Positions 1,386 to 63,598 of a stretch of 64,000 nt of DNA are shown here, one piece after another. Each line of letters begins with the position of its first letter. Position 1 is the stretch's first letter. The notes below the pieces were generated by a model. It did not search any database. It saw only the letters and a list, made by a program, of their open reading frames with translations, and was not told the DNA's origin. The DNA is from Methanobacterium sp. (GTDB lineage: Archaea > Methanobacteriota > Methanobacteria > Methanobacteriales > Methanobacteriaceae). The stretch is taken from NCBI GenBank assembly GCA_015661405.1, contig JACWMK010000007.1, positions 198-64,197 on the forward strand, written 5' to 3'. The position numbers were made by a program, and so were the translations under genes.

Positions 1386-1653
1386 AAATCCCTTTATTAA
1401 ATAATTCCTTATAAATCTTGCTATATTCTTTTTTATAAGCCCTTGAAAATTATTTATATCCATTTTTACAGGTGAAGTTAAATAAAAGTTAAAATGCGTT
1501 TTGTAATAAAATAGTTTAAAATGTATTTTATGAATTTGACTATAAAATTTCAATTAATAATAATTGTTTATATTCAATATGAGTTATATTAATTTTAATT
1601 TAAAATTAGTTTCATCCACTTTTATAATATTATTCATTAAAAGAGAAATTAAT

Positions 1654-3888
1654 ATGTCTAGAAAGAAGTTATTAACACAACTAGCCATAATATCAGCAAT
1701 ATTCCTCTTAGGATTTTTGATCAGGATAGATTCAGCATATATTCCTGGAGTACCTGCAGATGAAAAATCATTTTATGAGGATGCAAACAATCTTCCTTAT
1801 ATGTATGAGCTGGATTCTTATTATAACTATCGTTTAACAGATAATTTTATTAATCATGGTTATATGGGGGATACTATAATTAACGGTACTGATTGGGATT
1901 TACATTCCTATTATCCTCCAGGAGTACCTCTTGATTATCCCCCGCTTATTGTTTACTTATCAACTATTGCTTATTATCTAGTTAACTTATTCAGCAGAAC
2001 ATCCCTCCTTACCGTAGTATTCTGGTTGCCAGCATTTATAGGGCCGTTAAGTGGTGTGATTGCTTATTTACTAATGAGTAGATTTACAAATATTTATGGT
2101 GCTTTAGCTGCTGGAATTTTTGCTGTGACGGTACCTATTTTTGTTTTTAGAACGATAGCAGGATTCTTTACCACAGATATGTTCATTGTTTTTTTCCCGC
2201 TTTTAATTACATTATTTTACATAGAAGCTGTAAATAGTATTAATATAAAAAATAAGGTTCTATTAGCAATTATGGCGGCTTTTTCCATGTTCTTATTTGC
2301 TATGGGGTGGATTGGCTGGACATACCAATTTTATTTGATGATAATCTTCACTACATTCTATATTATAGGATTAAAACTGAAGGGGGATAATATACGAAAT
2401 TTAACCATAGTATTATTGACATTTTTTTCAGGTACACTATTACTGATTTATATTTTTATGGGAAAATTAAGTATCATTAATCTTTTTATGGATCCTTTGG
2501 AACTTTTATTGATATCCGGCACCCAAAATCCGTGGTATGATTGGCCTAATTTATATACTACTGTTTCTGAATTACAAAGGCCTTCTATGTTAATGATTAT
2601 TTCCGGATTGGGACTTGTATCAATTGGGGGTATTTTAGGTCTTTTCTGGATGTTTAGGGTTATGATCAATGATGTACTTAAAAAACGATTCTTAAAGGTT
2701 TTTTTCTATTTTTCTAGTTTTTTGGACATTGATTGGGTTTGTTTCACTTTTGGAAGGAGCTAGATTTATGATGTTGTTAGTATCACCCATGGTTATCAGT
2801 TCTGGAATCCTTATAGGCATAGTCGTAGGTTATCTTGATTTCCTTAAAGGTAGTAAAAATTTTCCAATATTTAAAAGAAGACCAGAATTTTTAACTGTGA
2901 TTGTTATTTTGATCATAATCTGGATAACTGTTCCTTCAGTTTTTTCTCTTGAGAAAACATTTTCAACCATGATTCCTTTAGCTAACGATGATTTAAGCAA
3001 TGCATCACAATGGATTAAAGAAAACACATCAATAAATACTGTTATAATATCTGATTGGAGTTATGGGCATTATTTCACTGCAATGGCTGATCGTCCGGTT
3101 ATTATGGATGGGAGAATGGGGTACATTGAAACATTACCTACAAGAAATTTTGATCCCACCGCTTATCCATTTGGTGATCAATCTCCAGGTATTTCAAGGG
3201 TTTACTGGGTTGATCATGCATTTTCAACGACAAATGAAAGTTTATCAGTTGGTATTTTCCAAATGTTATCTACTAGTGGAGATTTGGCTTATTTAACCTT
3301 GAATAATTATACTCACAATACTTCTCAAAGTGTAGAAATTTTAAATAATGTTTTGGGTGTTAATAAGAGTGTAGCTGGGATCATTTGAGTTATAGTCAGG
3401 CTTATACTATTTTGGAATATACTCATCCGGATAATGTACAGCCTTTTGTTGTAGTAACCACTTATGGAATGATGAATGAAGGTGGGAATATTTTTGAGTT
3501 TGGAGAATGGAATTTTAAAACAGATCAGGGATTGAATAGCACTTATTCTTTGGGTGAAATGAGTGTGAATAATGGATTTTTGGATAGTAATAATGGAGTT
3601 CATATGGATTTGCAAAATGAGAATATAACTTGGAATGGTAAAATACCATATTCTTTAGTTACTGTTACAAATGGAAAAATAGAGCAGCGTTATCTTGATG
3701 AAAATAGTAATTTTTCAATATTATTATTCATGGATGATAATGAATCTATTGTTATGGATAAACAATTTGATAATTCACTTTTTACTAAAATTATACTTGA
3801 AAAAGGTAATAGTTCTTATTTCAAACCAGTTTATAGTAATGATAATGTGGTGGTTTGGGAATTGAAATCAAATATTAATGATTCTTAA
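1654..3888 (+). pseudogene. aglB: AglB/STT3 archaeal oligosaccharyltransferase split into three frames by two frameshifts.
   Basis: The track ORFs 1564-2763 (frame 1), 2729-3388 (frame 2) and 3385-3888 (frame 1) together read as one STT3-like protein. It has an N-terminal multi-TM region (MSRKKLL... from the ATG at 1654), a WWDYG-type motif variant (DWSYGHYF) in the middle piece, and a soluble C-terminal domain. The frame switches fall at a T7 run (2699-2705) and a T3 run (3384-3386). Confidence 0.75.
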
Positions 3889-4187: not shown

Positions 4188-4335
4188 TTATACACTGGCT
4201 CTGACATTGTTTATGTCTGATGATGCACTTAAAGAGGTGTTAGTATTGAAGTAAGCTCTGTAGATCAGTAATGCGGCTATGGCTATGACGATTACTCCTC
4301 CAAAAAGTAAGATGTATTCAGCTGCTCCTTGTCCA
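4188..4335. repeat. Direct repeat copy 1 (about 145 bp, near-identical to 4518-4665).
   Basis: By-eye alignment of 4191-4333 against 4521-4663 shows only scattered mismatches. It covers the mature part of the two pilin-like paralogues, and identity drops in the leader-coding part. Confidence 0.8.
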
Positions 4336-4358
4336 CCTTCATCTTTTACGATATCCAT
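4188..4358 (-). CDS. Class III signal peptide (pilin-like) small protein, 56 aa, paralogue A.
   Basis: My translation gives [63 protein letters not shown] Shine-Dalgarno-like sequence lies upstream. Confidence 0.6.
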
Positions 4359-4517
4359 TTTTTTTATTCCTCCAAAAATTTTTTTAGGAATTTAAAAGAA
4401 TTCCATTATAAACATTTACAATCACTTATATAAAGATTTATGTTTCAGATTGAGTTCAGTTGAACATTAATTATTTTAAATAGAAAACATCATTAAATAG
4501 AGATGTTTTTACATGAA

Positions 4518-4665
4518 CTATACACTAGTTCTGATATGACTTATGTCTGATGATGCACTTAAAGAGGTGTTAGTATTGAAGTAAGCTCTGTAGATTAATA
4601 ATGCAGCTATGGCTATGACGATTACTCCCCCAAAAAGTAAGATGTATTCAGCTGCCCCTTGCCCC
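4518..4665. repeat. Direct repeat copy 2 (pairs with 4188-4335).
   Basis: Same alignment as for copy 1. Confidence 0.8.
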
Positions 4666-4688
4666 TTTACATCATTTATAAATTTCAT
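4518..4688 (-). CDS. Class III signal peptide (pilin-like) small protein, 56 aa, paralogue B.
   Basis: My translation gives [56 protein letters not shown]. An AGGAGGGG Shine-Dalgarno-like sequence lies directly upstream. Confidence 0.6.
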
Positions 4689-4728
4689 TACATCCCCTCC
4701 TATAATATTTACTTTATTATTAATATTG

Positions 4729-4738
4729 TATATATAAA
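4729..4738 (-). promoter_or_regulatory. Candidate archaeal TATA box for pilin-like paralogue B.
   Basis: The reverse strand reads TTTATATATA about 41 nt upstream of the ATG at 4688. This fits a TATA box roughly 25 nt from the transcription start plus a short Shine-Dalgarno-containing leader. Confidence 0.35.
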
Positions 4739-4857
4739 TGCAAGTAATTTTTTTATTATTCTATATTTTAAAAATTTTTTTTCACAATAATATAGTATTT
4801 ATATAGTTCTTTGTGCAAAATATCACACATTAAATAATCAAATTGAGGTAATCTTTT

Positions 4858-5430
4858 ATGCCCAGAAATTACAAGTTGAAGGAATTAATCTTAGAATCTT
4901 TGGATGAAAGAGAATTATCTAAGAAAGAACTTTTAGATCATATAATAAAAAAATCTGATACTAATATTTCAGATAAAACTTTTAACGAGTCATTAATGAA
5001 TTTATTGAAGGATGGAAAAATCTGTATGATTGGTTACGATTTCGACGTTTATCATGGTGTTAAACGAATTCAATCCATAAGACCTGATGGAATCATATTT
5101 AGTATAGTTAAAACTGATTTTTTTGAAATTGAAACTCTCATTAAAAAGTTAGATGGTTCAGAAGAAGAGGTTAAAAACTCTTCTTTTAAAATTAAAAGAA
5201 TTTTCAGAAATAAAATTAGGGAATTACAAGAAAACGGAGTGACTCTAGACAGTGGAGGTGCTGACACTCTTTTTAATAGAATAATTTATTACATTGATTC
5301 TCAGCCAGATAAACAGAAGAAAATATTAACCACTAAATTTGCATGGAGTTTAAGTGATGTTGAGGGAGAAGACGGATTTCTAGAGGACATTTTAAATTAT
5401 ATCAAAGTTCAAGGAATACTAGGAATTTAA
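4858..5430 (+). CDS. Hypothetical protein, possibly with an N-terminal winged-helix-like domain.
   Basis: A 190-aa ORF with a GAGGT Shine-Dalgarno sequence upstream. I recognise no family motif. Confidence 0.45.
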   Translation: MPRNYKLKELILESLDERELSKKELLDHIIKKSDTNISDKTFNESLMNLLKDGKICMIGYDFDVYHGVKRIQSIRPDGIIFSIVKTDFFEIETLIKKLDGSEEEVKNSSFKIKRIFRNKIRELQENGVTLDSGGADTLFNRIIYYIDSQPDKQKKILTTKFAWSLSDVEGEDGFLEDILNYIKVQGILGI

Positions 5431-5797
5431 AAATTTCAAAAAAATCAATTGATTTTAATCCAATATCAATTATTAATATTAAATTTTAACTCCCCTAATA
5501 CATTTTAATCTTTTTATAGGAATTAAGTTAATACGAAGACTATTATAAATAAAATTTTAAAAAAACATCCCGGAATACCTTTTTTTATATATCAAATCCT
5601 TCAAAAAAAGTTAATTTGAATTTAATGAATTTATTTTTTAGAAATATGTTTTAAGCGTTGAATTTACAACAATGATAATCCTACACATATGAATATGATG
5701 GTGATGATGAAGTAGAGATCATATGAATTAATAGAGGATAAGGGAAACCTTTATTATTTATAAAAATCCATAACATATTAATATTTGGAGGCAAAAG

Positions 5798-6988
5798 ATG
5801 TTCAATTTAATCATTACAATTATTGGTGTGTTTCTGCTTATTATAGGGTTTTATTTAATGTCTTTCGGATTTTCAACTCCACCTAACAGTTTATTTTTCT
5901 TTTTAGGGTTATGTATAGCTGTTTTTGGACTTATACTAGTAGTATTCTTTGTTAGTGGAGTTGAAACTTCTGGAAGAAGCTCTCCAATTCCAGGAAATGT
6001 ATCCAAAACAGAATCTAATAATAATCCTAGACCCAAACAGATGAAAATAGAGAAAATGGTTCCTATGCAAAATAAAAAAGAAGCTACTTTGGATAATATT
6101 AAGAAAACAATTAAATCAGAAGAACCAATTAAGCCAAAACCAAGAATTATTAATCCAAAAAAAGCTGAGCATCCTGAAAAACCTACTAAGCAAAAACCAA
6201 GTATTATGAATACAAAAAAAACTGAGCATCCTCTTGTCAACCAAAAATCTTCTAAAACTGAAGGAAAAACAGAATCTAAAGAGGAAAAAACCAAAAATAA
6301 TGAGCTTGCAAAATTAAATAAAACTGATGAATCAGAATCTACTCAAATGAAACCAATAAAAAAAATTCCTAAAAAGCCAGATATGACCAAATTAACTTCC
6401 ATGCGGCATGAAAAGGATGATGATTACGTTAAAAAAAGATTAGATCGTTTAAAGGCAAGTTACATTGAAAATGCTGAAGATATTGAAAGCATTATAGATG
6501 AACGATTAGATTCATTCAAGGGTACATTAGGCAAACTCAAATCAGAGTCTAAAGAACCAGGAATAATTTGGTCATTTGATGCTGATGATGTTAAGGAAGC
6601 TATGGTAGATACAATTTCTAAAACTAATAATAGATTATTAATGATGTATCCTTGGATTAGGAATATAGATGTTAGTACCTTAAAGAAATTCATGGAAACT
6701 GACAGTTGCATTATCATACAGGAGGCTAGTTTAGATGATGATGCTTCAGTAGAACTTTTAAAATTGTTAATAGATAAAAAGGTTAAAATAAGAACTATGC
6801 CACATGTTCACACCATAGCTATAGTTTCCGATAATAAAAATGGGTTAATAATATCCACTGATCCCATATATGATAGTTACGAAGTAGGTGTAATTTATAG
6901 GGATCAAAAGTCAATAGAAGAAATAGAGAGATTGTTTAAAGATGCATGGAGCATTTCTCAAGATATTGACTTGGAGATTAAATCATGA
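5798..6988 (+). CDS. Membrane-anchored protein with a Lys/Pro/Glu-rich linker and a C-terminal globular domain.
   Basis: A 396-aa ORF with a GGAGG Shine-Dalgarno sequence. It has two N-terminal TM helices, then a low-complexity K/P/E region containing an imperfect 39-nt repeat (6137-6175 and 6194-6232). The C-terminal half is structured. Its stop overlaps the next start (ATGA). Confidence 0.55.
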   Translation: MFNLIITIIGVFLLIIGFYLMSFGFSTPPNSLFFFLGLCIAVFGLILVVFFVSGVETSGRSSPIPGNVSKTESNNNPRPKQMKIEKMVPMQNKKEATLDNIKKTIKSEEPIKPKPRIINPKKAEHPEKPTKQKPSIMNTKKTEHPLVNQKSSKTEGKTESKEEKTKNNELAKLNKTDESESTQMKPIKKIPKKPDMTKLTSMRHEKDDDYVKKRLDRLKASYIENAEDIESIIDERLDSFKGTLGKLKSESKEPGIIWSFDADDVKEAMVDTISKTNNRLLMMYPWIRNIDVSTLKKFMETDSCIIIQEASLDDDASVELLKLLIDKKVKIRTMPHVHTIAIVSDNKNGLIISTDPIYDSYEVGVIYRDQKSIEEIERLFKDAWSISQDIDLEIKS

Positions 6989-7683
6989 TAATTAAGTGGC
7001 TTGGACATTCCGCATTTCAGATTATCACTAATTATAACCTTAAAATTCTCATAGATCCATTTATAAGCAATAACCCTACTTCACCTTTAACTGCAGAAGA
7101 GTTAAATGCTGATTTAATTCTGGTAACTCATGGGCATCAGGATCACTTTGGGGATACTATGGAAATAGCTAATCGAACTGGTGCTCTTATAATTGCAAAT
7201 CATGAAACTTCAATTTTTCTTTCAAAACAGGGTTTAAATACTCAGGGAATGAATATTGGAGGTTCCATGGATGTTCAGGATATTGAAGTTACAATGGTGA
7301 ATGCTAATCATTCTTCCGGATTGGATTTTATGGATGAAACTGCTGATGGCGGAATAGCCTGCGGGTATATATTAAAACTCGAAAATGGTAGGAAAATCTA
7401 TCACTCAGGAGATACTGGAATATTTGGCGATATGAAAATGGTTATAAGGGATATTTATCAACCGAATATAGTATTGCTGCCTATAGGGGATCTTTATACT
7501 ATGGGTATTGAAGAGGCAGCTATTGCTGCGGATTGGATTTCACCAGAAGTTTTAATCCCTATGCATTATAATACTTTCCCTTTAATTGAGCAAAATCCAT
7601 TGGAGTTTGCTGAGATGGTTGAATCCTTGAATCCTAATATTAATGTTGTGATTATGGAGCCGGGTGAATTTTACGAGGAATGA
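6985..7683 (+). CDS. UPF0173-type metal-dependent hydrolase (metallo-beta-lactamase fold).
   Basis: The N-terminus MIIKWLGHSAFQI and the motif VTHGHQDHFGD (HxHxDH) are typical of this family. Confidence 0.85.
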   Translation: MIIKWLGHSAFQIITNYNLKILIDPFISNNPTSPLTAEELNADLILVTHGHQDHFGDTMEIANRTGALIIANHETSIFLSKQGLNTQGMNIGGSMDVQDIEVTMVNANHSSGLDFMDETADGGIACGYILKLENGRKIYHSGDTGIFGDMKMVIRDIYQPNIVLLPIGDLYTMGIEEAAIAADWISPEVLIPMHYNTFPLIEQNPLEFAEMVESLNPNINVVIMEPGEFYEE

Positions 7684-7697
7684 TGTAGTTGGTGAGC

Positions 7698-8330
7698 ATG
7701 CCTAGATTTTTAAAACGGAAATTTTTCAAAGACTTAATTAATAAGCTCTTTGGAAATGATAAAAAACTTAAAATAGGATTTTATGGTCATCCTAACTCTG
7801 GTAAAACTACTTTAGCTAATCGGATGACTAATGATTGGATTGGTAAACCTATTGGTTTAGTTTCAGAGATTCCCCATGAAACTAGAAGGGTTTATCGTCA
7901 GGAGCATGTTACTTTAAGTCATGATGATCTGGAATTGGATTTCGATATTATTGATACTCCTGGAATAGCCACTAAAATTGATTATAAAAATTTCCTTGAA
8001 TTTGGCTTATCTGAAACTGAAGCTAAAGAGAGGGCTAAAGAAGCTACTAAAGGTATTATTGAGGCTATTAAATGGTTGGATGATGTGACTGGTGTTTTAT
8101 TAGTTATTGATTCAACTAAGGATCCTTTGACTCAGGCCAACATCACTATAATGGGAAATCTTGAGGCACGTAAGATTCCATTTATAATTGTGGCTAATAA
8201 AATTGACCTTCCTGAGGCTTCTCCTGATAAAATTCACTCAGTATTCCCTCAGCATACGGTGATACCCATTTCTGCTTTGCAAGGTGAACATATAAGCGAT
8301 CTTTATCAAGCTATGGTAGATAAATTCTAA
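7698..8330 (+). CDS. Small GTP-binding protein (P-loop GTPase).
   Basis: It carries G1 [10 protein letters not shown]3 DTPG and G4 NKID motifs. The ATG at 7698 lies in frame with the track ORF that starts at 7689. Confidence 0.8.
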
Positions 8331-8372
8331 TAATATGGGATTAAATAAGTTTTTTTTTGAGGTTAAAAAAAT

Positions 8373-8753
8373 ATGGATGCTAATACGAATGGTTTGAAAA
8401 TGGATTTCCTATCATCATCTATGCTTAACTCAAGTACTAGTATGGAGAAAATTTCCATGATAGTGAATAGAGTAAAAAATGGAGATTTAGTGGTTATAGA
8501 AGGAGGATTAACTCCTGAAGAAGAAGCGGAGCTCATTGAGGCCACTATGAGGGAAATAGATGTAGATAACTTTATGGGAATCGATATTTATACACTGGAA
8601 AAGGATAAAAAATCTTTTTTCGGACTTTCAAAAAGTAAAATCGTAGGTATAACCATTATTGGTCCGGCTAATGTAATGAAGGCTGTTAAGAAAAAATCTA
8701 ACTTCCTCTCCATGATAGCTAACCTCGGTGATTTGAATGCATCGATGCATTAA
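8373..8753 (+). CDS. Conserved archaeal protein of unknown function (DUF2073-like).
   Basis: A 126-aa ORF immediately after the GTPase. The family name is from memory of this conserved archaeal triad and was not searched. Confidence 0.55.
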
Positions 8754-40577: not shown

Positions 40578-40690
40578 AAACTCGCTCTTTAAATATGACT
40601 TCCAAAATTATTTGAACCTTAAATCCGGATGTAGCTTAACCTTATTATGAATGATGTTTAAAATTCATGAATAGATTTAATTCTACTTAT

Positions 40691-40775
<85 letters not shown>

Positions 40776-40869
40776 TTTCAAAATACATATATTTAATAAT
40801 AAACATATATTAAGAGAATGAATTTAATTAAATCCTTTGTAAACAGTGGAAATTTGGAGGTTAATTAGT

Positions 40870-57347: not shown

Positions 57348-58244
57348 TTGGATTCAAGAGAAAGGGAAAAACTAGGTAGAAATGCTATAATTGTTGGTAT
57401 TTCTGGAAATGCAATTCTTGCTATTTTTAATTTCATTATAGGTACATTTTCCGGAAGTACAGCTCTTATAGCGGAATCTGCCCACACTTTCGCTGATATT
57501 TTAGACTCATCAATAGCATTCATAGGATTTAAAATAGGACTTAGACCCCCTGATACTGAGCATCCGTATGGATATGGGAGAGCAGAATCTCTAACAGGAT
57601 TAATAAGCGTAATTTTTCTGGTGTTCATTGCTTATGAATTATTATTGGATGTATATAGTAAGCTTTTATTAGGGACAGCATTGACTCCGCCAAATTTCAC
57701 TGCAGCATTAATGGCTTTAGTAGGTATCATTGTCAATTATACTATGACCACTTATATGACTAGAGTTGGCCATGAAATTAACAGTCCAGCCATAACTTCG
57801 GATGCAAAACATCAAAGAGTTGATATATTCACATGTGTTGCCATATTCATTGGTGTAATCGGATCACATCTCGGTGTACCTTTCTTAGATCCTTTGGTAG
57901 CATTAATCATTGTTGTATTAGTATTAAGGACAGCTTTTGAAGTAGCTCGAGATAACATAAATAATATTATAGGAAAAGTACCTTCAGATCATCTTTTACA
58001 AAATATTGAAGTAGCAGCTTTATCAGTTGAAGGAGTTTCCGGAGCTCATTCCATTAAAATAAATTATTTAGGACCTTACGCAACAGTTGATATTCATATT
58101 GAAGTTGAACCTAATTTAACCGTCGTTGAAGCACATAAAATATCCATTCAAGTAGAAAAGAAAATCATTGAACAGGTAGAGATTGTAACTATTGTGAATG
58201 TTCATGTATGCATCACAGGTGAAAAAGGTGTATGCTTAGATTAA
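57348..58244 (+). CDS. Cation diffusion facilitator (CDF) exporter with an HD-HD site A quartet.
   Basis: TTG start. TM2 reads AESAHTFAD and TM5 reads DAKHQRVD (HxxxD twice). A C-terminal cytosolic domain is present. Confidence 0.85.
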   Translation: MDSREREKLGRNAIIVGISGNAILAIFNFIIGTFSGSTALIAESAHTFADILDSSIAFIGFKIGLRPPDTEHPYGYGRAESLTGLISVIFLVFIAYELLLDVYSKLLLGTALTPPNFTAALMALVGIIVNYTMTTYMTRVGHEINSPAITSDAKHQRVDIFTCVAIFIGVIGSHLGVPFLDPLVALIIVVLVLRTAFEVARDNINNIIGKVPSDHLLQNIEVAALSVEGVSGAHSIKINYLGPYATVDIHIEVEPNLTVVEAHKISIQVEKKIIEQVEIVTIVNVHVCITGEKGVCLD

Positions 58245-58525: not shown

Positions 58526-58741
58526 ATGGAAAACAATGAAAAAAATTTAAATGAAGTATATAATAAACTCAAAAATGAATATAAAGGAATTAAAGAGATA
58601 ATTATAGAAAATGAAGTTATCCTGATTTATGCAGATGATGAAATTCTCTGGAAAATATTTGGTGATAATATTGATGATTATAGAAGCATTGAATTCGATG
58701 CAGATACCAATGAATCACATTTCATAAAAATTTTACCATAA
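58526..58741 (+). CDS. Hypothetical small acidic protein.
   Basis: A 71-aa ORF with no recognisable motif. Confidence 0.3.
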   Translation: MENNEKNLNEVYNKLKNEYKGIKEIIIENEVILIYADDEILWKIFGDNIDDYRSIEFDADTNESHFIKILP

Positions 58742-58820: not shown

Positions 58821-59708
58821 TCAATCAGAACAGTTTTCATCATCATCCATGGGATCTAAATGTACTATTGCTATACTTATAATATCAATTTTTGTGATGA
58901 TAGTTCTTTCAACTTTATGCGCTATTTTATGAGCTTCTCTAAGTGGTAAATCACCTTTCACTTCAACATGAATCTCAACTGATGCATAAGGTCCCATGTT
59001 GTTAACCTTAATATCATGAGCATCATACACACCTTCAACAGAAACGGCCACCGATTTTATATCATTTATAAGTTTTTTAGACGGCACTTTACCCATTAAA
59101 TTATTTATATTCTCCCGAGCAACATCGAAGGCAGTTTTTATAACTAGAACTCCTATTACTACTGCTAAAATTGGATCCAGAATAGGATAACCTAATTGAG
59201 AACCTACAATACCAAAAAAAATTGCAACAGATGTAAATACATCCATCTTCTTCTGATTACCAGTAGCCATTAATATTTGACTATTAATTTCTCTTCCTGT
59301 TTTAAAAAGGTATTTCATTGTAAAATAATTCAAAAAAAAGGCAATAATCGCCATTCCTGCAGCAATCCAGCTGGGAGCTGCTAATGAACCAACCATTAAA
59401 AATTTAGTATAAGCCTCCAGAAATATTTGATAAGCAATAAAGAAAAGAATTAAGGCAATAAACAAGCCAACAAGAGGCTCAATACGTCCATGCCCATAAG
59501 GATGCTCTGCATCTGCCGGTCTCAAACCAACACGAAAAGCCCATAGACCAATTAAATTAGATAAGAGATCACCTGCATTATCCGCAGCTTGAGCTACCAA
59601 AGCAGTTGACCCACTTATTATTCCCACTACAAAATTTAAAATTGTAAGAATAACATTAACTAATATAGCAAATTTATTTGATCTATTCCCTATTTCTTCC
59701 CTATCCAT
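58821..59708 (-). CDS. Cation diffusion facilitator (CDF) exporter with a DD-ND site A quartet.
   Basis: TM2 reads AQAADNAGD (DxxxD) and TM5 reads GNQKKMD (NxxxD). It looks roughly half identical to the CDF at 57348-58244 by eye. Confidence 0.85.
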   Translation of the reverse strand: MDREEIGNRSNKFAILVNVILTILNFVVGIISGSTALVAQAADNAGDLLSNLIGLWAFRVGLRPADAEHPYGHGRIEPLVGLFIALILFFIAYQIFLEAYTKFLMVGSLAAPSWIAAGMAIIAFFLNYFTMKYLFKTGREINSQILMATGNQKKMDVFTSVAIFFGIVGSQLGYPILDPILAVVIGVLVIKTAFDVARENINNLMGKVPSKKLINDIKSVAVSVEGVYDAHDIKVNNMGPYASVEIHVEVKGDLPLREAHKIAHKVERTIITKIDIISIAIVHLDPMDDDENCSD

Positions 59709-59894: not shown

Positions 59895-61157
59895 TTATGT
59901 AGGGAGGAATGATGTTAGTACCAGGGCAATACTCAAACCTATTAAAATTGCAATTGTTGTTCCTGCTATTATGTTGAAAAACCTTGAGTTTACATGTTCT
60001 CCCATTATTTTCTTATCATTAATGAGTAGAAGCATAAATATTAATATAAATGGGAGTAATAGGCCATTTGCAACCTGGGAAAAGAACAGTATTGAAAGTA
60101 AAGGTGCATTTGGAATCAAGATGATTATAACTGCCATTACTATAAGCCCGAGATATAGTCCATGGAATATCGGTGCTTCTCTAAATCCTTTGTTAACTCC
60201 TGCCTCAAAACCTAACATTTCACAGACAAAATATGAAGTAGCTAATGGTAAGATGCTTGCTGCAAATAAAGATGCGTTTAAAAATCCAAATGCAAACAAT
60301 ATGCTAGCATAATTCCCAGCGATGGGGGCAAGTGCTTTTGAAATATCTGCAACATTATTAACAGGGATACCATGAGTAAATATGGTGGCTGCGCAGGCGA
60401 TCACTATAAAAAAAGCGATAAAATTCACAGCAAAAGCTCCAAATACGGCATCTATTTTAGAATATTTCAAATTCTTTAAACTTACTCCTTTCTCGACAAT
60501 AGACGCCTGAATGTAAAACATTTGCCATGGAGCTATTGTCGTTCCAATCACCCCTATAACCATAGTAATATAAGCGGTACTTAAACTTAGCTGAGGTAAT
60601 ACAACATTTTTTGCTGCAAGTGCCCAGTTTGGTTGTGCAAGTAATCCGGCTGCAATATATGAAATATAAAGGGCTGATGCTAATAAAAATACTTTTTCTA
60701 CACTTTTATAATTACCTTTAACTATAAGAAGCCAGACAAAAAGCGCAGCAAGAGGTAAAGCAATGATCCGAGGAATATTAAATATCCCCGTACTTACAGC
60801 TACGCCTGAAAATTCGGCAAGTACATTACCGAAATTAGTTGCAAGAAGTGCGAACATCAGTATAACGGTGATTTTAATTCCTACTCTTTCACGGATAAGA
60901 TCTGCAAGTCCTTTTCCAGATACAATACCTAATCTAACACCCATCTCTTGAATAACAGCTAATGCTACGAACATGGGAATAAAAAGCCACATCAGACTAT
61001 AACCAAACTGTGAACCAGCCAAGGAATAAGTGGTGATACCACCAGCATCATTATCCACATTAGCAGTGATTATTCCCGGTCCCATTACACCTAAAAATAT
61101 TACTAAACTTATTATAAATGGGGTTTGGAAGACTCTGCGGAAAACTCTAAGATCCAT
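59895..61157 (-). CDS. SLC11/NRAMP-family transporter with NRMT-type (Mg2+-clade-like) binding-site substitutions.
   Basis: I prefer the ATG at 61157, which has a GAGGT Shine-Dalgarno sequence 7 nt upstream and lies 14 nt after the upstream stop. The track start at 61208 is the alternative. TM1 has DAGG (61038-61049) where canonical MntH has DPGN. TM6 has TTIAPW (60525-60542) where canonical MntH has A..MPH. Confidence 0.85.
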   Translation of the reverse strand: MDLRVFRRVFQTPFIISLVIFLGVMGPGIITANVDNDAGGITTYSLAGSQFGYSLMWLFIPMFVALAVIQEMGVRLGIVSGKGLADLIRERVGIKITVILMFALLATNFGNVLAEFSGVAVSTGIFNIPRIIALPLAALFVWLLIVKGNYKSVEKVFLLASALYISYIAAGLLAQPNWALAAKNVVLPQLSLSTAYITMVIGVIGTTIAPWQMFYIQASIVEKGVSLKNLKYSKIDAVFGAFAVNFIAFFIVIACAATIFTHGIPVNNVADISKALAPIAGNYASILFAFGFLNASLFAASILPLATSYFVCEMLGFEAGVNKGFREAPIFHGLYLGLIVMAVIIILIPNAPLLSILFFSQVANGLLLPFILIFMLLLINDKKIMGEHVNSRFFNIIAGTTIAILIGLSIALVLTSFLPT

Positions 61158-61171
61158 ATCAAAAACCTCTT

Positions 61172-62461
61172 TTATCTTCCAAACATTCTTGGAACTCTTT
61201 TCTTCCAAGCGACAGGTAAAACAATATCCATAGCATCATCAACAGTGATAATACCTTTTAATTTCTGCTCATCCTCAACAACTGGTAAAGCGAGTAAATT
61301 GTATTTAGCGATTTTCTGGGCAACCTCTACTTGATCCTCATTGATGTCAGCTTTTATTATATGGGTGTGCATGTAATCTGTGATCTTTTTATCGGGATCT
61401 GCTAGTAAAATATCTCTTAGAGAAGTCACGCCTACCAAGTTACCATTTTTGGAGGTTATATAAACATAATAAATGGTTTCTACGTCTTTAGCTATTTCGC
61501 GAAGAGATTTCAATACTTCCCTAACTGTTAGATCTTGATCCACATAGGCATATTCGGTGGTCATGATTCCGCCTGCAGTGTTTTCAGGATATTCTAATAA
61601 TTTTCTTAAATCATTAGATTCTTCTGGTTCCATTAAATCCAGGAGTTCCTCAGCTTTTTCTTCGGATAAATCACCAAGTACGTCTGCTGCATCATCAGGA
61701 TCCATTTCATCCAATAATTCAGCAGCACGATGACTGTCCATACCCTCTAAGAGAGAAACCTGCCGTTCAGGAGATACCTCCTCTAAAGTATCGGCCGCTG
61801 CTTCATCATCAAGGGAATTTAAAATATTTATGGATTCATTAATACTTAGTTGATCTACTATTTCTGCTATGTCTGCGGGGTGGAGTTTTTTTATTTTTTG
61901 TTCAGGCACTTTTAATTTCAACTTAGTATAATCCGTATTCAATGTGTCAATATCAGCCCAGGCGATTATATTTTCATTAGATTTTACACCGAATGGTTTA
62001 GCAATACTTTCAACGCCTAATCTTTTTAAAATACCGTAAAATCCAATATCTACACCTATAACATGATAATAACCTTGACTTGGGGATAATTTAATATCAT
62101 TTACTCTTCTTATTTTCTTATCCTCAATATCAACAACTTGTCGATCAAGAACATCTTCTGAAAGTCTTATATCTGATTTTTTAATCTTATATTCGGGTAT
62201 ATCCTTTAACGTACTTTTAAGATTAATTTCACTCCCTAATTGACTTATGTGGGTGTATGGAATACTAATTATTTTTTTATCTGAAGTATTCACAGTTATA
62301 GCTTCTATGATAGGATATGCGGCTTCGGAAGATACTAGAACATCCTTAAGTTTTCCTATTTTTTTTCCGGTGGAATCTATTACTGGTTTTTTAATTAATT
62401 CACTTAGATACAAAGCTTTCACCTCACTATTAATTATTTTTATGGAGTTTTTATTGATCAC
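61172..62461 (-). CDS. Soluble protein with two PRC-barrel domains, an MgtE N-domain and a CBS pair, but no MgtE membrane domain.
   Basis: The GTG start directly abuts the lrp stop. Two PRC-barrel-like segments are followed by an MgtE_N-like acidic helical repeat (DDEAAADTLEEVSPERQVSLLEGMDSHRAAELLDEMDPDDAADVLGDL). Next come the CBS pair and GGIMTTEY. The protein ends at ...KKRVPRMFGR with no TM helices. Confidence 0.8.
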   Translation of the reverse strand: MINKNSIKIINSEVKALYLSELIKKPVIDSTGKKIGKLKDVLVSSEAAYPIIEAITVNTSDKKIISIPYTHISQLGSEINLKSTLKDIPEYKIKKSDIRLSEDVLDRQVVDIEDKKIRRVNDIKLSPSQGYYHVIGVDIGFYGILKRLGVESIAKPFGVKSNENIIAWADIDTLNTDYTKLKLKVPEQKIKKLHPADIAEIVDQLSINESINILNSLDDEAAADTLEEVSPERQVSLLEGMDSHRAAELLDEMDPDDAADVLGDLSEEKAEELLDLMEPEESNDLRKLLEYPENTAGGIMTTEYAYVDQDLTVREVLKSLREIAKDVETIYYVYITSKNGNLVGVTSLRDILLADPDKKITDYMHTHIIKADINEDQVEVAQKIAKYNLLALPVVEDEQKLKGIITVDDAMDIVLPVAWKKRVPRMFGR

Positions 62462-62917
62462 TTATAGGTTGTGGGGCATCACTCCCTCTTTAATGCGTTC
62501 CATTACAATCATCTCTGTTAAATCTTCCACTCCATCCACAGAACGTATTTTATTGTTAACGATGTTATTAAGTTCTTCTAAGCTTTGAGCCCATACTTTA
62601 ATTAGTATATCATATTCTCCGGATATACTGTACACTTCCGAGACTTCTTCAAGTTTAGCTAATTTTAATTCTACACTTCGATGTTTTTCTGACTCGGTTT
62701 GAATAATTATAATCGCTGTGACTTTTAAACCGAATTTATCAAGATCTAATTTTAGAGTGTACTGTTTGATCACATTTTTATCAAGTTTTTTGAGACGATT
62801 TGATATGGTTGCGTCGGGTACATCAATCTCTTTAGACATTTGAGAAAGAGTGATCCTAGCGTTTTTGACCAAAGAATGAATAATTCGCGAGTCTATATCG
62901 TCTAATTCATCATCCAT
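62462..62917 (-). CDS. Lrp/AsnC-family transcriptional regulator.
   Basis: N-terminal HTH ([38 protein letters not shown]) and a C-terminal RAM/ACT-like domain. Length 151 aa. Confidence 0.88.
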
Positions 62918-63283
62918 TTATTTTTCACCACTAAATTGTTTACATTTATTAGTACATTACTTATTATATATAAAATATTGGGAAGATTACCTAGAAAATA
63001 AGTGAAATATTTGGTTAAGTCTTAAAAAAATTACTATATTCACGAAAAGACTACTTTTTTCAATTTTATTTAAAAAAATTTTTTGATTAAAAATTTAATG
63101 GTCTTAAAAGTATCCATTTTTTTAGAATACAACATTTAAAAAATTTTTTTACACTGAACTCTTTTTTTTAATATAAAAAATAAATAACAGATTAAATAGA
63201 ATAAATTATAGCAAAAAAAACTGTGTGTACTAATTTTAGTATCTAAAATTAAAATAATTCAGCTTATTAAATAAAGGAGGATA

Positions 63284-63598
63284 TTGGAATTGGAAAAAAT
63301 TGAACTTAAATATGACAGGATAGAAAGGATAGGTGATGATTACTATTTAGTGTATAGGTCAGACTTCTTTGATGAAATTAAGAGAAATGAAACACCAGAA
63401 AACATTAATCTTCTTAAATATATTATAAGTGGACTTAAAGCTAAAAAGAAGGATTCGTTCTACGACACAGATTTAGAATATAATCCACTACTAAAGGTGC
63501 AGTTTAATTACCAAAAAAATAAGGATGAAGAATCAATCGAGAAAGTAAGAATTGATACTGAAGCATTAATCAATAATATAATAACAGATAAAAAATAA
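63284..63598 (+). CDS. Hypothetical protein.
   Basis: TTG start with a strong AAGGAGG Shine-Dalgarno sequence at 63274-63280. A 104-aa ORF with no recognised motif. Confidence 0.4.
   Translation: MELEKIELKYDRIERIGDDYYLVYRSDFFDEIKRNETPENINLLKYIISGLKAKKKDSFYDTDLEYNPLLKVQFNYQKNKDEESIEKVRIDTEALINNIITDKK

Follow-up and report, generated by a model that had tools for sequence, protein, structure and literature searches.

NRMT transporters and their MgtE-like partners have been described in bacteria from two directions. EleNRMT of Eggerthella lenta (Ramanadane et al., 2022, PMC8806188; PDB 7QIA/7QIC/7QJI/7QJJ) is an uncoupled transporter that carries both Mg2+ and Mn2+, and it is thus without a built-in brake. 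Functional tests of that protein included residues D55, T224, and Q379, and the consensus given for the NRMT clade is DxxG-TxxA/T (PMC8806188). Shin et al. [quoted passage not shown] In the same study, an M-box was found upstream of nrmT operons in many members, not including A. capsulatum. C. acetobutylicum NrmT complemented a need for Mg2+, the A. capsulatum transporter acted mainly as a Mn2+ importer, and a B. subtilis host co-expressing both A. capsulatum genes showed no additional Mg2+ rescue. Transport without a partner has been seen for both EleNRMT and the C. acetobutylicum proteins (PMC8806188, PMC4072509). In MgtE itself, the same cytosolic module closes the channel at high Mg2+ (PMC5882242).

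Here, we describe an archaeal instance from a 64,000-nucleotide stretch of Methanobacterium sp. DNA (the window). The locus is a copy of the known two-gene "mgtE-like fragment + nrmT" module and an ordinary member of it. An initial sequence-only reading had taken a regulatory partnership between an MgtE-type sensor and an SLC11 transporter to be uncharacterised; the pairing had already been reported by Shin et al. (2014). In the literature that we searched, we found no demonstrated interaction between sensor and NRMT, and no demonstrated gating.

Organization of the Methanobacterium locus

Open reading frames and Pfam searches agree with the sequence-only reading that three genes are packed on the minus strand, encoding an Lrp/AsnC regulator, a soluble PRC + MgtE_N + CBS protein, and an NRAMP-fold transporter (Table 1). 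That reading had the GTG start of the soluble protein abutting the lrp stop. We found that GTG 62461 is the start of the longest ORF only, and that TTG 62413, 48 nt downstream, is the likelier start. Homologues of the soluble protein are 412-416 aa long with N-termini MYLSE or VKALYLSE, and TTG 62413 has GAGGTGA ahead of it with a 5-nt spacer, suggesting that the protein is likely 413 aa rather than 429 aa long. With this start, 48 nt lie between the lrp stop and the soluble-protein gene, so the two genes do not abut; the equivalent junction in M. paludis has a gap of 73 nt. The second junction is as originally described, with 14 nt between the soluble-protein stop (TAA 61174-61172) and the transporter ATG, and a GAGGT inside the gap. 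Translated from this ATG, the transporter matches the length of its closest homologues.

Table 1. Features of the sensor-NRMT locus and its surroundings, in window coordinates
Feature	Coordinates	Strand	Remarks
Candidate archaeal TATA box TTTTATATATA	62964..62974	-	~50 nt upstream of lrp ATG; read by eye
lrp ORF	62917..62462	-	151 aa; first gene of cluster
Soluble protein, longest ORF	62461..61172	-	429 aa; GTG start
Soluble PRC + MgtE_N + CBS-pair protein, likely form	61172..62413	-	413 aa from TTG 62413
PRC-barrel 1	62225..62413	-	residues 1-63 of 413-aa form; Pfam E 1.7e-11, AF2, Foldseek
Second, degenerate PRC-like region with helical insert	61964..62173	-	residues ~81-150; sub-threshold Pfam, AF2
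MgtE_N helical domain	61580..61885	-	residues 177-278; Pfam E 1.1e-29; equivalents of TtMgtE E59, D91, D95
CBS pair	61217..61567	-	residues ~283-399; two Pfam stretches, E 5.1e-17; equivalents of TtMgtE D247, D250; D226 = Asn
Basic C-terminal tail LPVAWKKRVPRMFGR	61175..61216	-	where MgtE has the acidic plug helix
GAGGT Shine-Dalgarno-like sequence	61165..61169	-	7 nt 5' of transporter ATG, within the 14-nt gap
Transporter, longest ORF	61208..59895	-	ORF list
NRMT-clade transporter	59895..61157	-	420 aa from ATG 61157
TM1 metal-site motif D37-A-G-G40 (DxxG)	61038..61049	-	Asn of canonical DPGN replaced with Gly
TM6 motif T206-T-I-A-P-W211 (TxxA)	60525..60542	-	Trp at first alpha-6b His position
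CDF-family cation efflux transporter	58821..59708	-	Pfam Cation_efflux + ZT_dimer; 186 nt downstream of NRMT

The soluble protein is an MgtE-type sensor module without a pore

Pfam and NCBIfam profiles, comparison with the cytosolic domain of T. thermophilus MgtE (2yvy; E 2.1e-45, 38% identity over 228 aa), and Foldseek (E 1e-22 against 2zy9/2yvy) all identify an MgtE_N domain and a CBS pair in the soluble protein. We also confirmed that the MgtE membrane pore is missing. The protein has no PF01769 match and no transmembrane segment (the top 19-residue Kyte-Doolittle mean is 1.12), TIGR00400 reached 201 bits (cut-off 232.75) and aligned over profile positions 24-254 only, and tblastn with MgtE membrane domains detected no pore domain within the 64-kb window. 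On these grounds, the soluble protein cannot be classed as an MgtE channel.

Of the two PRC-barrels that had been proposed, the first is clear in Pfam and in the AF2 model (block-mean pLDDT ~80-95 over residues 1-80), and Foldseek matched it to MTH1859, the RC H subunit, and CdpB1/2. The second falls under the Pfam cut-off, reaching 16.8 bits for PRC (E 0.007) when scanned alone, and was modelled at low to moderate confidence (pLDDT 31-51 in the full-length model and ~56-72 in an N-terminal model) as an incomplete barrel containing a helical insert. For the 172-residue N-terminal model, Foldseek alignments to the PRC-barrel chains of CdpB1/CdpB2 cover 146-154 columns. At the other end of the protein, the basic tail is near-invariant across Methanobacteriaceae and has an AF2 pLDDT of <50.

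We compared the soluble protein with the Mg2+ sites of T. thermophilus MgtE (TtMgtE), as taken from PMC5882242. The acidic ligands of Mg4 (D91, D247), Mg6 (D95), and Mg7 (E59) are kept. Among the window protein and 51 sensors from the loci described below (n = 52), Asp occupies the D91 position in 43/52, the D95 position in 51/52, and the D247 position in 43/52 sequences, and 38/52 have Asp or Glu at the E59 position. The soluble protein thus retains acidic residues that in MgtE coordinate Mg2+ at the N-domain/CBS interface, and may itself bind Mg2+. In contrast, the Mg5 ligand D226 is Asn in the window protein and mostly Asn across the set, and the plug-helix residues E258/D259 (Mg2/Mg3 sites) are absent, with the basic tail in their place. 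Since the residues that couple sensor to pore in MgtE (E258/D259, D226) are absent, any output mechanism must differ from that of MgtE. The ATP site of TtMgtE is also altered: F227 is Leu and N203 is His in the window protein, and both positions are poorly conserved among the soluble proteins (mostly Leu and variable, respectively).

T. thermophilus MgtE (2YVX/2ZY9; cytosolic domain 2YVY) has the homologous N domain and CBS pair, but not the ~175 N-terminal residues of the PRC-barrel region. A representative search recovered, among the best-scoring relatives, channels of ~600 aa with PRC, MgtE_N, CBS, and pore domains. These PRC-bearing full-length channels (for example P0259, P0273, and P0291) have the same N-terminal domain order and align with residues 1-400 of the soluble protein at 34-41% identity; unlike the soluble protein, they carry PF01769 and an acidic plug helix, EEAxEDI. 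By average linkage, 23 of 25 such channels clustered together, largely apart from the soluble forms. The pore-bearing relatives lend some support to the earlier picture of a "split" system; the Mg2+ gating that was part of that picture is an inference. As pore-bearing MgtE relatives have PRC barrels too, these barrels are not specialised for docking to NRMTs.

The transporter belongs to the NRMT clade

The transporter matches Pfam Nramp at E 2.6e-88. In a phmmer search of the PDB, EleNRMT (7QIA) was by far the best match (360 bits, E 1.2e-106; 42.5% identity over 395 aa), and all other SLC11 structures scored E 1.4e-27 or weaker: 100 bits for 10ky, 84-90 bits for the 414-445-aa MntH entries 8e6i, 6c3i, and 5kte, 44 bits for the 494-519-aa MntH entries 5m87 and 6tl2, and 39 bits for the NRAT 8ont. 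Pairwise sequence scores and motifs thus place the transporter in the NRMT clade and not with MntH, NRAMP, or NRAT, as the sequence-only reading had anticipated.

The motifs bear that reading out, with N-D-A-G-G-I in TM1 and G-T-T-I-A-P-W in TM6. In T206-T-I-A209, Ala is replaced with Thr and the soft Met ligand with Ala, fitting the TxxA/T of NRMTs. DAGG, which was absent from our locus search pattern, is present in 76/81 locus NRMTs plus the window transporter; GTTIAPW served as a search pattern in fetching the loci, so that its conservation among them is circular. Trp and Ile occupy the two alpha-6b His positions (APWQMFYIQ), so neither can take up a proton. Alignment to EleNRMT also showed that the alpha-3 Glu (AEFSG) and the alpha-10 Gln (SQVANG) are retained. 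The DAGG, TTIAPW, and alpha-10 Gln of the window protein match the functionally tested D55, T224, and Q379 of EleNRMT (PMC8806188). By analogy with EleNRMT, the predicted substrates are hydrated Mg2+ and also Mn2+, which the transporter most likely takes in uncoupled from protons and driven by the membrane potential; as a member of the clade, it would also be expected to exclude Ca2+. One relative in the clade, from A. capsulatum, preferred Mn2+ (PMC4072509).

Sensor and NRMT genes are paired across genomes

We scanned GTDB species genomes for NRMT loci and considered as informative those whose upstream sequence extended for 1.4 kb or more (n = 71). An MgtE_N-CBS gene lies directly upstream on the same strand in 52/71 informative loci, so the synteny of the pair is conserved. 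The PRC region is in the same ORF in 51 of these 52 sensors, a membrane domain or transmembrane tail in none (0/52), and the gap to the NRMT gene is often just 4-60 nt. These loci span Omnitrophota, Zixibacteria, Syntrophales, Acidobacteriota, Nitrospirota, Firmicutes, Chloroflexota, Armatimonadota, and Planctomycetota, as well as Methanobacteriaceae and Methanocellaceae. No sensor was found directly upstream in the other 19/71 loci, hence adjacency is not obligatory; four of the 19 have one elsewhere, either 2-3 kb upstream (L059, L069) or downstream (L044, L039). We also compared the distance matrices of sensors and NRMTs and obtained a Mantel r of 0.87 (permutation maximum 0.14, 2000 permutations). 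Together, synteny and correlated distances support the proposal that the MgtE-type module is functionally tied to the transporter. The L056 locus seems to be frameshifted.

Flanking genes and regulatory elements

The lrp product matches HTH_AsnC-type (E 4.7e-09) and AsnC_trans_reg (E 1.5e-19) in Pfam above their cut-offs. Its best NCBIfam matches (LysM, AsnC, LrpA) are all under cut-off, and since no equivalog cut-off was reached, we assign no specific orthologue name. An Lrp gene lies directly upstream of the sensor in six Methanobacteriaceae loci and one Methanocellaceae locus, and in no bacterial locus. M. paludis has the same order, Lrp-sensor-Nramp-CDF. A CDF gene follows the NRMT gene at L001, L004, L007, L009, and L040, and is a frequent but not constant neighbor in methanogen loci. 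For the window CDF protein, only the CDF superfamily model was above the NCBIfam cut-off, with sub-cut-off likenesses to the Fe/Mn/Zn-type proteins MamM, MamB, FieF, and MntE; a CDF gene at this position might indicate a transition metal instead of Mg2+.

A sigma-70 promoter scan has no bearing on an archaeal locus. Rfam gave a single match in the window, a tRNA, and no M-box. Among 11 loci scanned, one, in a Firmicutes MAG (L010), has an M-box riboswitch (132.7 bits) directly upstream of the sensor-NRMT pair.

Discussion

On balance, we lean toward the soluble protein being a detachable, Mg2+-responsive regulatory subunit of the NRMT uniporter within a small metal-homeostasis cluster. High cytosolic Mg2+ (or Mn2+) would clamp the N and CBS domains of the soluble protein together, and the clamped form would inhibit the otherwise ungated uniporter. 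Docking would be on the cytoplasmic face of the transporter, probably via the PRC region, the basic C-terminal tail, or both. In methanogens, the position of the pair behind an Lrp/AsnC regulator, often with a CDF efflux pump after it, would make up the small metal-homeostasis cluster, with a putative role for Lrp.

It is unlikely, in our estimate, that the pair serves chiefly for uptake of manganese or another transition metal, with the MgtE-like protein sensing Mn2+ and the CDF exporter balancing the metal. Such a role would fit an A. capsulatum NrmT-group protein with an adjacent MgtE-like gene, which rescued a Mn2+ defect fully and a Mg2+ defect partly, and whose partner, Shin et al. suggest, may respond to Mn2+ (PMC4072509). 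It would also fit the transport of Mn2+ besides Mg2+ by EleNRMT (PMC8806188), and the CDF gene that follows the NRMT gene in the window and at several methanogen loci, with its likenesses to Fe/Mn/Zn-type proteins. However, the binding-site signature is that of EleNRMT, including T206, and T224 of EleNRMT is needed specifically for Mg2+ (PMC8806188). Furthermore, the M-box over the 55%-identical orthologous Firmicutes pair points to Mg2+, and the acidic sites that are conserved offer hard ligands, like those of MgtE. The window lacks an M-box, which would suit manganese, but archaea are in any case unlikely to carry one.

We likewise consider it improbable that the soluble protein is not a gate, but a cytoplasmic metal buffer or chaperone, or a signalling protein whose output lies elsewhere (Lrp or other PRC-binding partners) and which is co-transcribed for co-expression. 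An alternative named by Shin et al. is "metal chaperone activity", and their co-expression test left transport-dependent growth unchanged (PMC4072509); EleNRMT works alone in vitro (PMC8806188). PRC domains are general protein-interaction modules, consistent with the Foldseek matches to CdpB1/2, RimM, and the RC H subunit, and the plug-helix coupling residues of MgtE are lost. Yet the tight, widespread adjacency and the in-step divergence of the two proteins are better explained by physical partners than by a general buffer. Relatives in which this module is joined in cis to membrane domains argue for control of a membrane transporter as its ancestral task. None of the bacterial loci has an Lrp gene, which excludes signalling to Lrp as the general function. 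We find it barely credible that the adjacency is meaningless and the sensor a decaying remnant of an mgtE that lost its pore. The existence of close pore-bearing relatives and one apparently frameshifted locus (L056) might suggest decay, but the window ORF is intact, mean column identity is 83% over seven Methanobacterium-type sequences, and the sensor is present in 52 of the 71 informative loci across many phyla. In addition, 1488 cluster representatives of the representative library match the soluble protein at E 1e-30 or better; among the best 150 of these, 122 are 351-500 aa long, most aligned end to end, and 25 exceed 500 aa. The conservation data effectively refute a remnant of mgtE.

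A regulatory subunit acting in trans, the reading that we favor, may be set beside described systems. EleNRMT and the window transporter have the same D-x-x-G, T-x-x-A, alpha-10 Gln, and Trp at the first alpha-6b His position, and differ at the second (Asn in EleNRMT, Ile here). The published work on EleNRMT concerned the transporter by itself, and a partner gene did not come up in term searches of PMC8806188; we observed that close Eggerthellaceae orthologues, 91-92% identical to EleNRMT, have a 450-aa PRC + MgtE_N + CBS gene 3-4 nt upstream. CNNM CBS-domain proteins are reported to modulate the TRPM7 channel (J Biol Chem 2025, PMC12547303). Regulation in trans of a different membrane transport protein by a CBS-domain protein from the Mg2+-transport field thus has a precedent, although CNNMs are eukaryotic, membrane-embedded, and non-homologous to the MgtE_N module.

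The systems of Shin et al., the C. acetobutylicum Ca_c0685 operon and A. capsulatum Acp2976/Acp2977, share the gene order and the regulatory hypothesis with the window pair. Theirs are bacterial examples, whereas the window copy is archaeal, has lrp upstream, and is without an M-box; the C. acetobutylicum partner is split in two genes and the window partner is a single gene (PMC4072509). Archaea, PRC barrels, and Lrp are not mentioned in PMC4072509, and we did not find the PRC extension, the basic tail in place of the plug helix, or the methanogen-specific Lrp (often plus CDF) context in the literature searched. Overall, our scan confirms the pairing of Shin et al. and extends it to many bacterial phyla and two methanogen families.

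An lrp, Sensor, and Transporter Gene Cluster

Three successive minus-strand open reading frames (ORFs) fill positions 59895-62917 of the window (see the table). The sequence-only reading had placed an NRAMP-fold transporter closely behind a stand-alone MgtE-type protein, and this junction proved exact: the stop codon (TAA, 61174-61172) of the soluble PRC, MgtE_N, and CBS-pair protein (hereafter, the sensor) is followed by 14 nt that include GAGGT, and then by the transporter ATG at 61157. At 420 aa, the transporter is as long as its closest homologs. The same reading had the lrp stop codon abutting the sensor start; a GTG does abut it, but this GTG is only the start of the longest ORF. Because sensor homologs are 412-416 aa long (N termini MYLSE or VKALYLSE) and a GAGGTGA Shine-Dalgarno sequence lies 5 nt before TTG 62413, the sensor most likely starts at this TTG, with a predicted product of 413 aa and a gap of 48 nt to lrp. 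The gap at the equivalent junction in Methanobacterium paludis is 73 nt, and protein homologs assign the window to Methanobacterium/Methanobacteriaceae. We found no hydrophobic segment in the sensor, and tblastn with MgtE membrane-domain queries gave no match within the 64-kb window, in agreement with the claim that the MgtE pore is missing.

Features of the window and of NRMT loci from other genomes (L-numbers; coordinates within each locus)
Feature	Coordinates	Strand	Details
Window, ORF 1 (lrp)	62917..62462	-	151 aa; Lrp/AsnC family (Pfam)
Window, ORF 2 (sensor, longest form)	62461..61172	-	Pfam PRC E 1.7e-11, MgtE_N E 1.1e-29, two CBS stretches E 5.1e-17
Window, ORF 3 (transporter)	ATG at 61157	-	Pfam Nramp E 2.6e-88
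Window, CDF-family efflux gene next to NRMT	58821-59708	-	presumed TM2/TM5 sites D-N-A-G-D and Q-K-K-M-D, by eye
Window, second CDF-family efflux gene	57348-58244	+	H-T-F-A-D and H-Q-R-V-D, by eye
Window, small ORF	63284-63598	+	104 aa; divergent from lrp, with 366 nt of AT-rich sequence between
Window, small ORF	58526-58741	+	71 aa; flanks the cluster
Window, tRNA-Ser(GGA)	40690-40776		one in the window
L010 (Firmicutes bacterium UBA4049), M-box	4444-4614		RF00380, full length, 132.7 bits; immediately upstream of the pair
L083/L084 (Eggerthellaceae), Rrf2-family gene	6293-6766	-	convergent, after the pair
L085/L086 (Eggerthellaceae), Rrf2-family gene	6445-6918	-	convergent, after the pair
L044, sensor	7167-8447		downstream of NRMT
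L059, sensor	2382-3656		2-3 kb upstream of NRMT
L069, sensor	1590-2972		2-3 kb upstream of NRMT
L039, sensor	2925-3224	-	downstream, opposite strand
L056 (Spirochaetota MAG), sensor	4210-5971		upstream; three overlapping ORFs (PRC only, MgtE_N only, CBS fragment)

Neither CDF gene reached an NCBIfam equivalog cut-off. CDF metal sites are expected to carry His or Asp, and the Gln of the gene next to NRMT is unusual; by eye, the second CDF gene shows the classic HD-HD zinc type. The two small ORFs had no NCBIfam match. All ORFs of 180 aa or longer from 21 to 56 kb lie on the plus strand, and the GC and AT skews both stay positive over 22000-56000; the lrp-sensor-NRMT-CDF cluster sits at the window end, where the strand has switched.

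The Transporter Belongs with NRMTs

In a search of all PDB sequences, the top match of the window transporter was EleNRMT, the Eggerthella lenta NRAMP-related Mg2+ transporter (PDB 7QIA; E 1.2e-106, 360 bits), with 42.5% identity across 395 residues. All other SLC11 structures scored 100 bits or less: 10ky at 100 bits, MntH entries of 414-445 aa (8e6i, 6c3i, and 5kte) at 84-90 bits, MntH entries of 494-519 aa (5m87 and 6tl2) at 44 bits, and the NRAT entry 8ont at 39 bits. We placed the transporter in the NRMT clade by this bit-score gap together with motif tests, in place of an SLC11 tree. Its motifs D37-A-G-G40 and T206-T-I-A209 fit the NRMT binding-site signature DxxG-TxxA/T (Ramanadane et al., 2022; PMC8806188), and the α10 Gln, whose EleNRMT counterpart Q379 is required for transport (PMC8806188), is present, as is the α3 Glu. 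The α6b positions that are His in proton-coupled NRAMPs are Trp and Ile. As far as sequence can tell, the protein carries every NRMT hallmark testable here, and the NRMT assignment made in the earlier reading held.

The Sensor Keeps Interface Ligands of MgtE and Has a Different C Terminus

The profile search proposed for the sensor returned all three expected families (see the table). The sensor matched the cytosolic domain of TtMgtE, the Thermus thermophilus MgtE channel, at E 2.1e-45 with 38% identity; with only profile positions 24-254 matched, it fell short of the cut-off for the full-length mgtE model. An AlphaFold2 model (mean pLDDT 71) was confident at residues 1-80, the MgtE_N helical repeat, and the CBS pair, and Foldseek retrieved MgtE structures with it at E 1e-22. 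When the N-terminal 172 residues were modeled alone (pLDDT 73.5), Foldseek matched the PRC-barrel proteins CdpB1/B2, MTH1859, the reaction-center H subunit, and RimM. Two PRC barrels had been proposed, which is only partly supported: the first is solid, but the second region gave a weak Pfam match (16.8 bits scanned by itself) and low-to-moderate model confidence.

We then aligned the window sensor with 51 sensors of other genomes (n = 52) at the TtMgtE sites defined by Maruyama et al. (2018; PMC5882242). Ligands at the interface of the N-domain and CBS pair were kept: Asp was found at D91 in 43, at D95 in 51, and at D247 in 43 of the 52 sensors, and the E59 position was Asp or Glu in 38. The D226 (Mg5) position was mostly Asn, the substitution used experimentally to disable the Mg5 site of TtMgtE (PMC5882242). 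The sensors lack E258 and D259, the plug-helix ligands of Mg2/Mg3 by which TtMgtE bridges its sensor to its pore (PMC5882242). In the place of the plug helix, Methanobacteriaceae sensors carry a near-invariant basic tail, AWKKRVPRMFGR, and the C-terminal tail has a net charge of +2 or more in half of the sensor family. The TtMgtE ATP-site residues (PMC5529423) were only partly kept, with F227 replaced by Leu and N203 by His in the window sensor and both positions variable across the family; we do not claim ATP regulation as in TtMgtE.

Sensor and NRMT Genes Travel Together

The sequence-only reading knew of no such partnership. The pairing of an mgtE-like gene with nrmT was in fact published by Shin et al. 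(2014; PMC4072509), who noted that the partner often shares a transcript controlled by an M-box riboswitch and speculated that it is a cytoplasmic feedback regulator or a metal chaperone. What stands of the claim concerns the mechanism: we found no later characterization of the partner in the literature searched (subscription-only papers lay outside it), and a term search of the 2022 EleNRMT structural paper (PMC8806188) found no mention of the partner gene.

The proposed co-occurrence check was run with an NRMT alignment against one genome per GTDB species, and the resulting 80 loci were analyzed by six-frame ORFs and window-family HMMs. Upstream sequence of at least 1.4 kb was available for 71 loci, and 52 of these (73%) had a same-strand MgtE_N-CBS gene immediately upstream of NRMT. 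The same ORF contained a PRC region in 51 of these 52 sensors and a membrane tail in none. NRMT loci came from Methanobacteriaceae, Methanocellaceae, and nine or more bacterial phyla. Pairwise distances of sensors and transporters gave a Mantel r of 0.87 (permutation maximum 0.14, 2000 permutations); therefore, the two genes travel and diverge together. A few loci have displaced sensors (L044, L059, L069, and L039; see the table), and the L056 sensor appears to carry a frameshift, which would reflect either a pseudogene or an assembly error.

The feature is real and its domain reading was largely right. The window locus is a typical member of the two-gene system described in 2014, with novelty only in its archaeal context and descriptive details. 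For annotation, a [quoted passage not shown] beside a "Nramp family divalent metal transporter" marks an NRMT system; such pairs are not Mn2+/Fe2+ MntH, and the MgtE-like partners are not channels.

Regulators May Differ among Lineages

The Lrp/AsnC gene was tied to methanogen loci (six Methanobacteriaceae, one Methanocellaceae, and no bacterial locus). No M-box or other riboswitch was found in the window at Rfam gathering thresholds. The Firmicutes MAG locus L010, with an NRMT that shares 55% identity with the window transporter, has a full-length M-box before the pair; no M-box was found in the 10 further loci scanned. In Eggerthellaceae, a convergent gene for an Rrf2-family regulator comes after the pair. 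Each lineage may have taken on a regulator of its own: methanogens Lrp, Firmicutes the M-box, and Eggerthellaceae possibly Rrf2. A CDF efflux gene often follows NRMT (the window, L001, L004, L007, L009, and L040). Bacterial promoter and terminator models, inapplicable to an archaeon, gave promoter-like sites at chance level across 58.2-63.4 kb.

The PRC, MgtE_N, and CBS Module Looks Portable

Beyond an "MgtE N-terminal domain," the sensor almost always bears ∼175 residues of PRC-barrel sequence. PRC barrels are not mentioned by Shin et al. (2014), and we found no paper on PRC barrels together with MgtE in the literature searched. Searching 1.84 billion representatives exhaustively with HMMER, we recovered 12,602 sensor relatives. 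Among the best 150, 122 were 351-500 aa long, most matching end to end, and 25 exceeded 500 aa. All four ∼600-aa relatives tested had an MgtE pore domain, and all eight displayed kept the acidic plug helix EEAxEDI; P0259, P0273, P0291, P0371, and about 20 other search hits represent a subfamily of full-length MgtE channels of this size with the N-terminal PRC extension of the soluble sensors. Average-linkage clustering put 23 of the 25 long relatives together, largely apart from the soluble forms. We had considered a docking role specific to NRMT for the PRC barrels and dropped this strong claim, since pore-bearing MgtE relatives have them too.

Two further relatives, P0369 (749 aa) and P0379 (651 aa), combine PRC, MgtE_N, CBS, and the acidic plug helix with a hydrophobic multi-helix C-terminal domain (residue ∼430 to the end) that is common to both (27% identity, E 7e-11). 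Neither Pfam nor a BLAST comparison with MgtE pores gave a match for this domain, which may be an unrecognized membrane partner of the same sensor. The cytosolic module looks portable because it is fused to an MgtE pore in some relatives and to the unrecognized membrane domain in these two. No sensor-NRAMP fusion was found among the best 150 sensor representatives, the long ones being fusions to MgtE pores or unknown transmembrane domains, and the best 120 matches of either NRMT search showed no fusion partner (only PF01566 by Pfam). To judge from the literature searched, both this modularity and the replacement of the acidic plug helix by a basic tail as candidate output element are new observations.

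A Candidate Brake on an Uncoupled Importer

NRMTs form the fourth class of prokaryotic Mg2+ importers and appear to be uncoupled. Among possible brakes, the conserved partner is the obvious one, unstudied since 2014 in the literature searched. In the mechanism that we consider most likely, NRMT would, by analogy with EleNRMT, import Mg2+ (and Mn2+) without proton coupling; the partner would probably sense cytosolic divalent cation through its conserved acidic N/CBS interface and restrain NRMT at high cation levels. We propose a brake because an uncoupled, potential-driven importer needs one and because MgtE uses the same module in this way. The output element would have to differ from that of MgtE, since the plug helix is replaced; we see candidates in the basic tail and in the PRC region. 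Control of NRMT by an MgtE-type module is a reasonable hypothesis, and the idea of such feedback was voiced in 2014 (Shin et al., 2014; PMC4072509).

The main rivals are a system centered on Mn2+, and a partner that acts as a buffer, chaperone, or signaling protein with no direct gating. The A. capsulatum transporter acted mainly as a Mn2+ importer, and its co-expression with the partner in B. subtilis did not further improve Mg2+ rescue (PMC4072509). The latter result weighs against gating; however, the assay measured only rescue at low Mg2+, so an inhibitor would not have shown. The brake hypothesis is directly testable in an established system, since a 450-aa PRC, MgtE_N, and CBS gene lies 3-4 nt upstream of Eggerthellaceae transporters that share 91-92% identity with the EleNRMT construct.

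A broader reading, which we find on balance somewhat doubtful, is that the PRC, MgtE_N, and CBS module is a portable Mg2+-sensing gate for three kinds of membrane partner. It would act in cis on the MgtE pore of the ∼600-aa relatives and on the unrecognized domain of P0369 and P0379, and in trans on the LeuT-fold NRMT, where the acidic plug helix would have given way to the basic tail as output element. If so, this would be, to our knowledge, the first soluble Mg2+-sensor subunit shown to regulate an SLC11-type carrier, and would explain how an uncoupled Mg2+ uniporter avoids overloading the cell.

The locus itself adds nothing fundamentally new; the comparative data sharpen the question of the brake. 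Like EleNRMT, which is uncoupled and has Trp and Asn at the α6b pair (PMC8806188), the window transporter has Trp at the first position, with Ile instead of Asn at the second. In comparison with TtMgtE, the window sensor keeps the acidic N/CBS ligands but carries a basic tail in place of the acidic plug helix, a combination that hints at where an interaction surface might lie.
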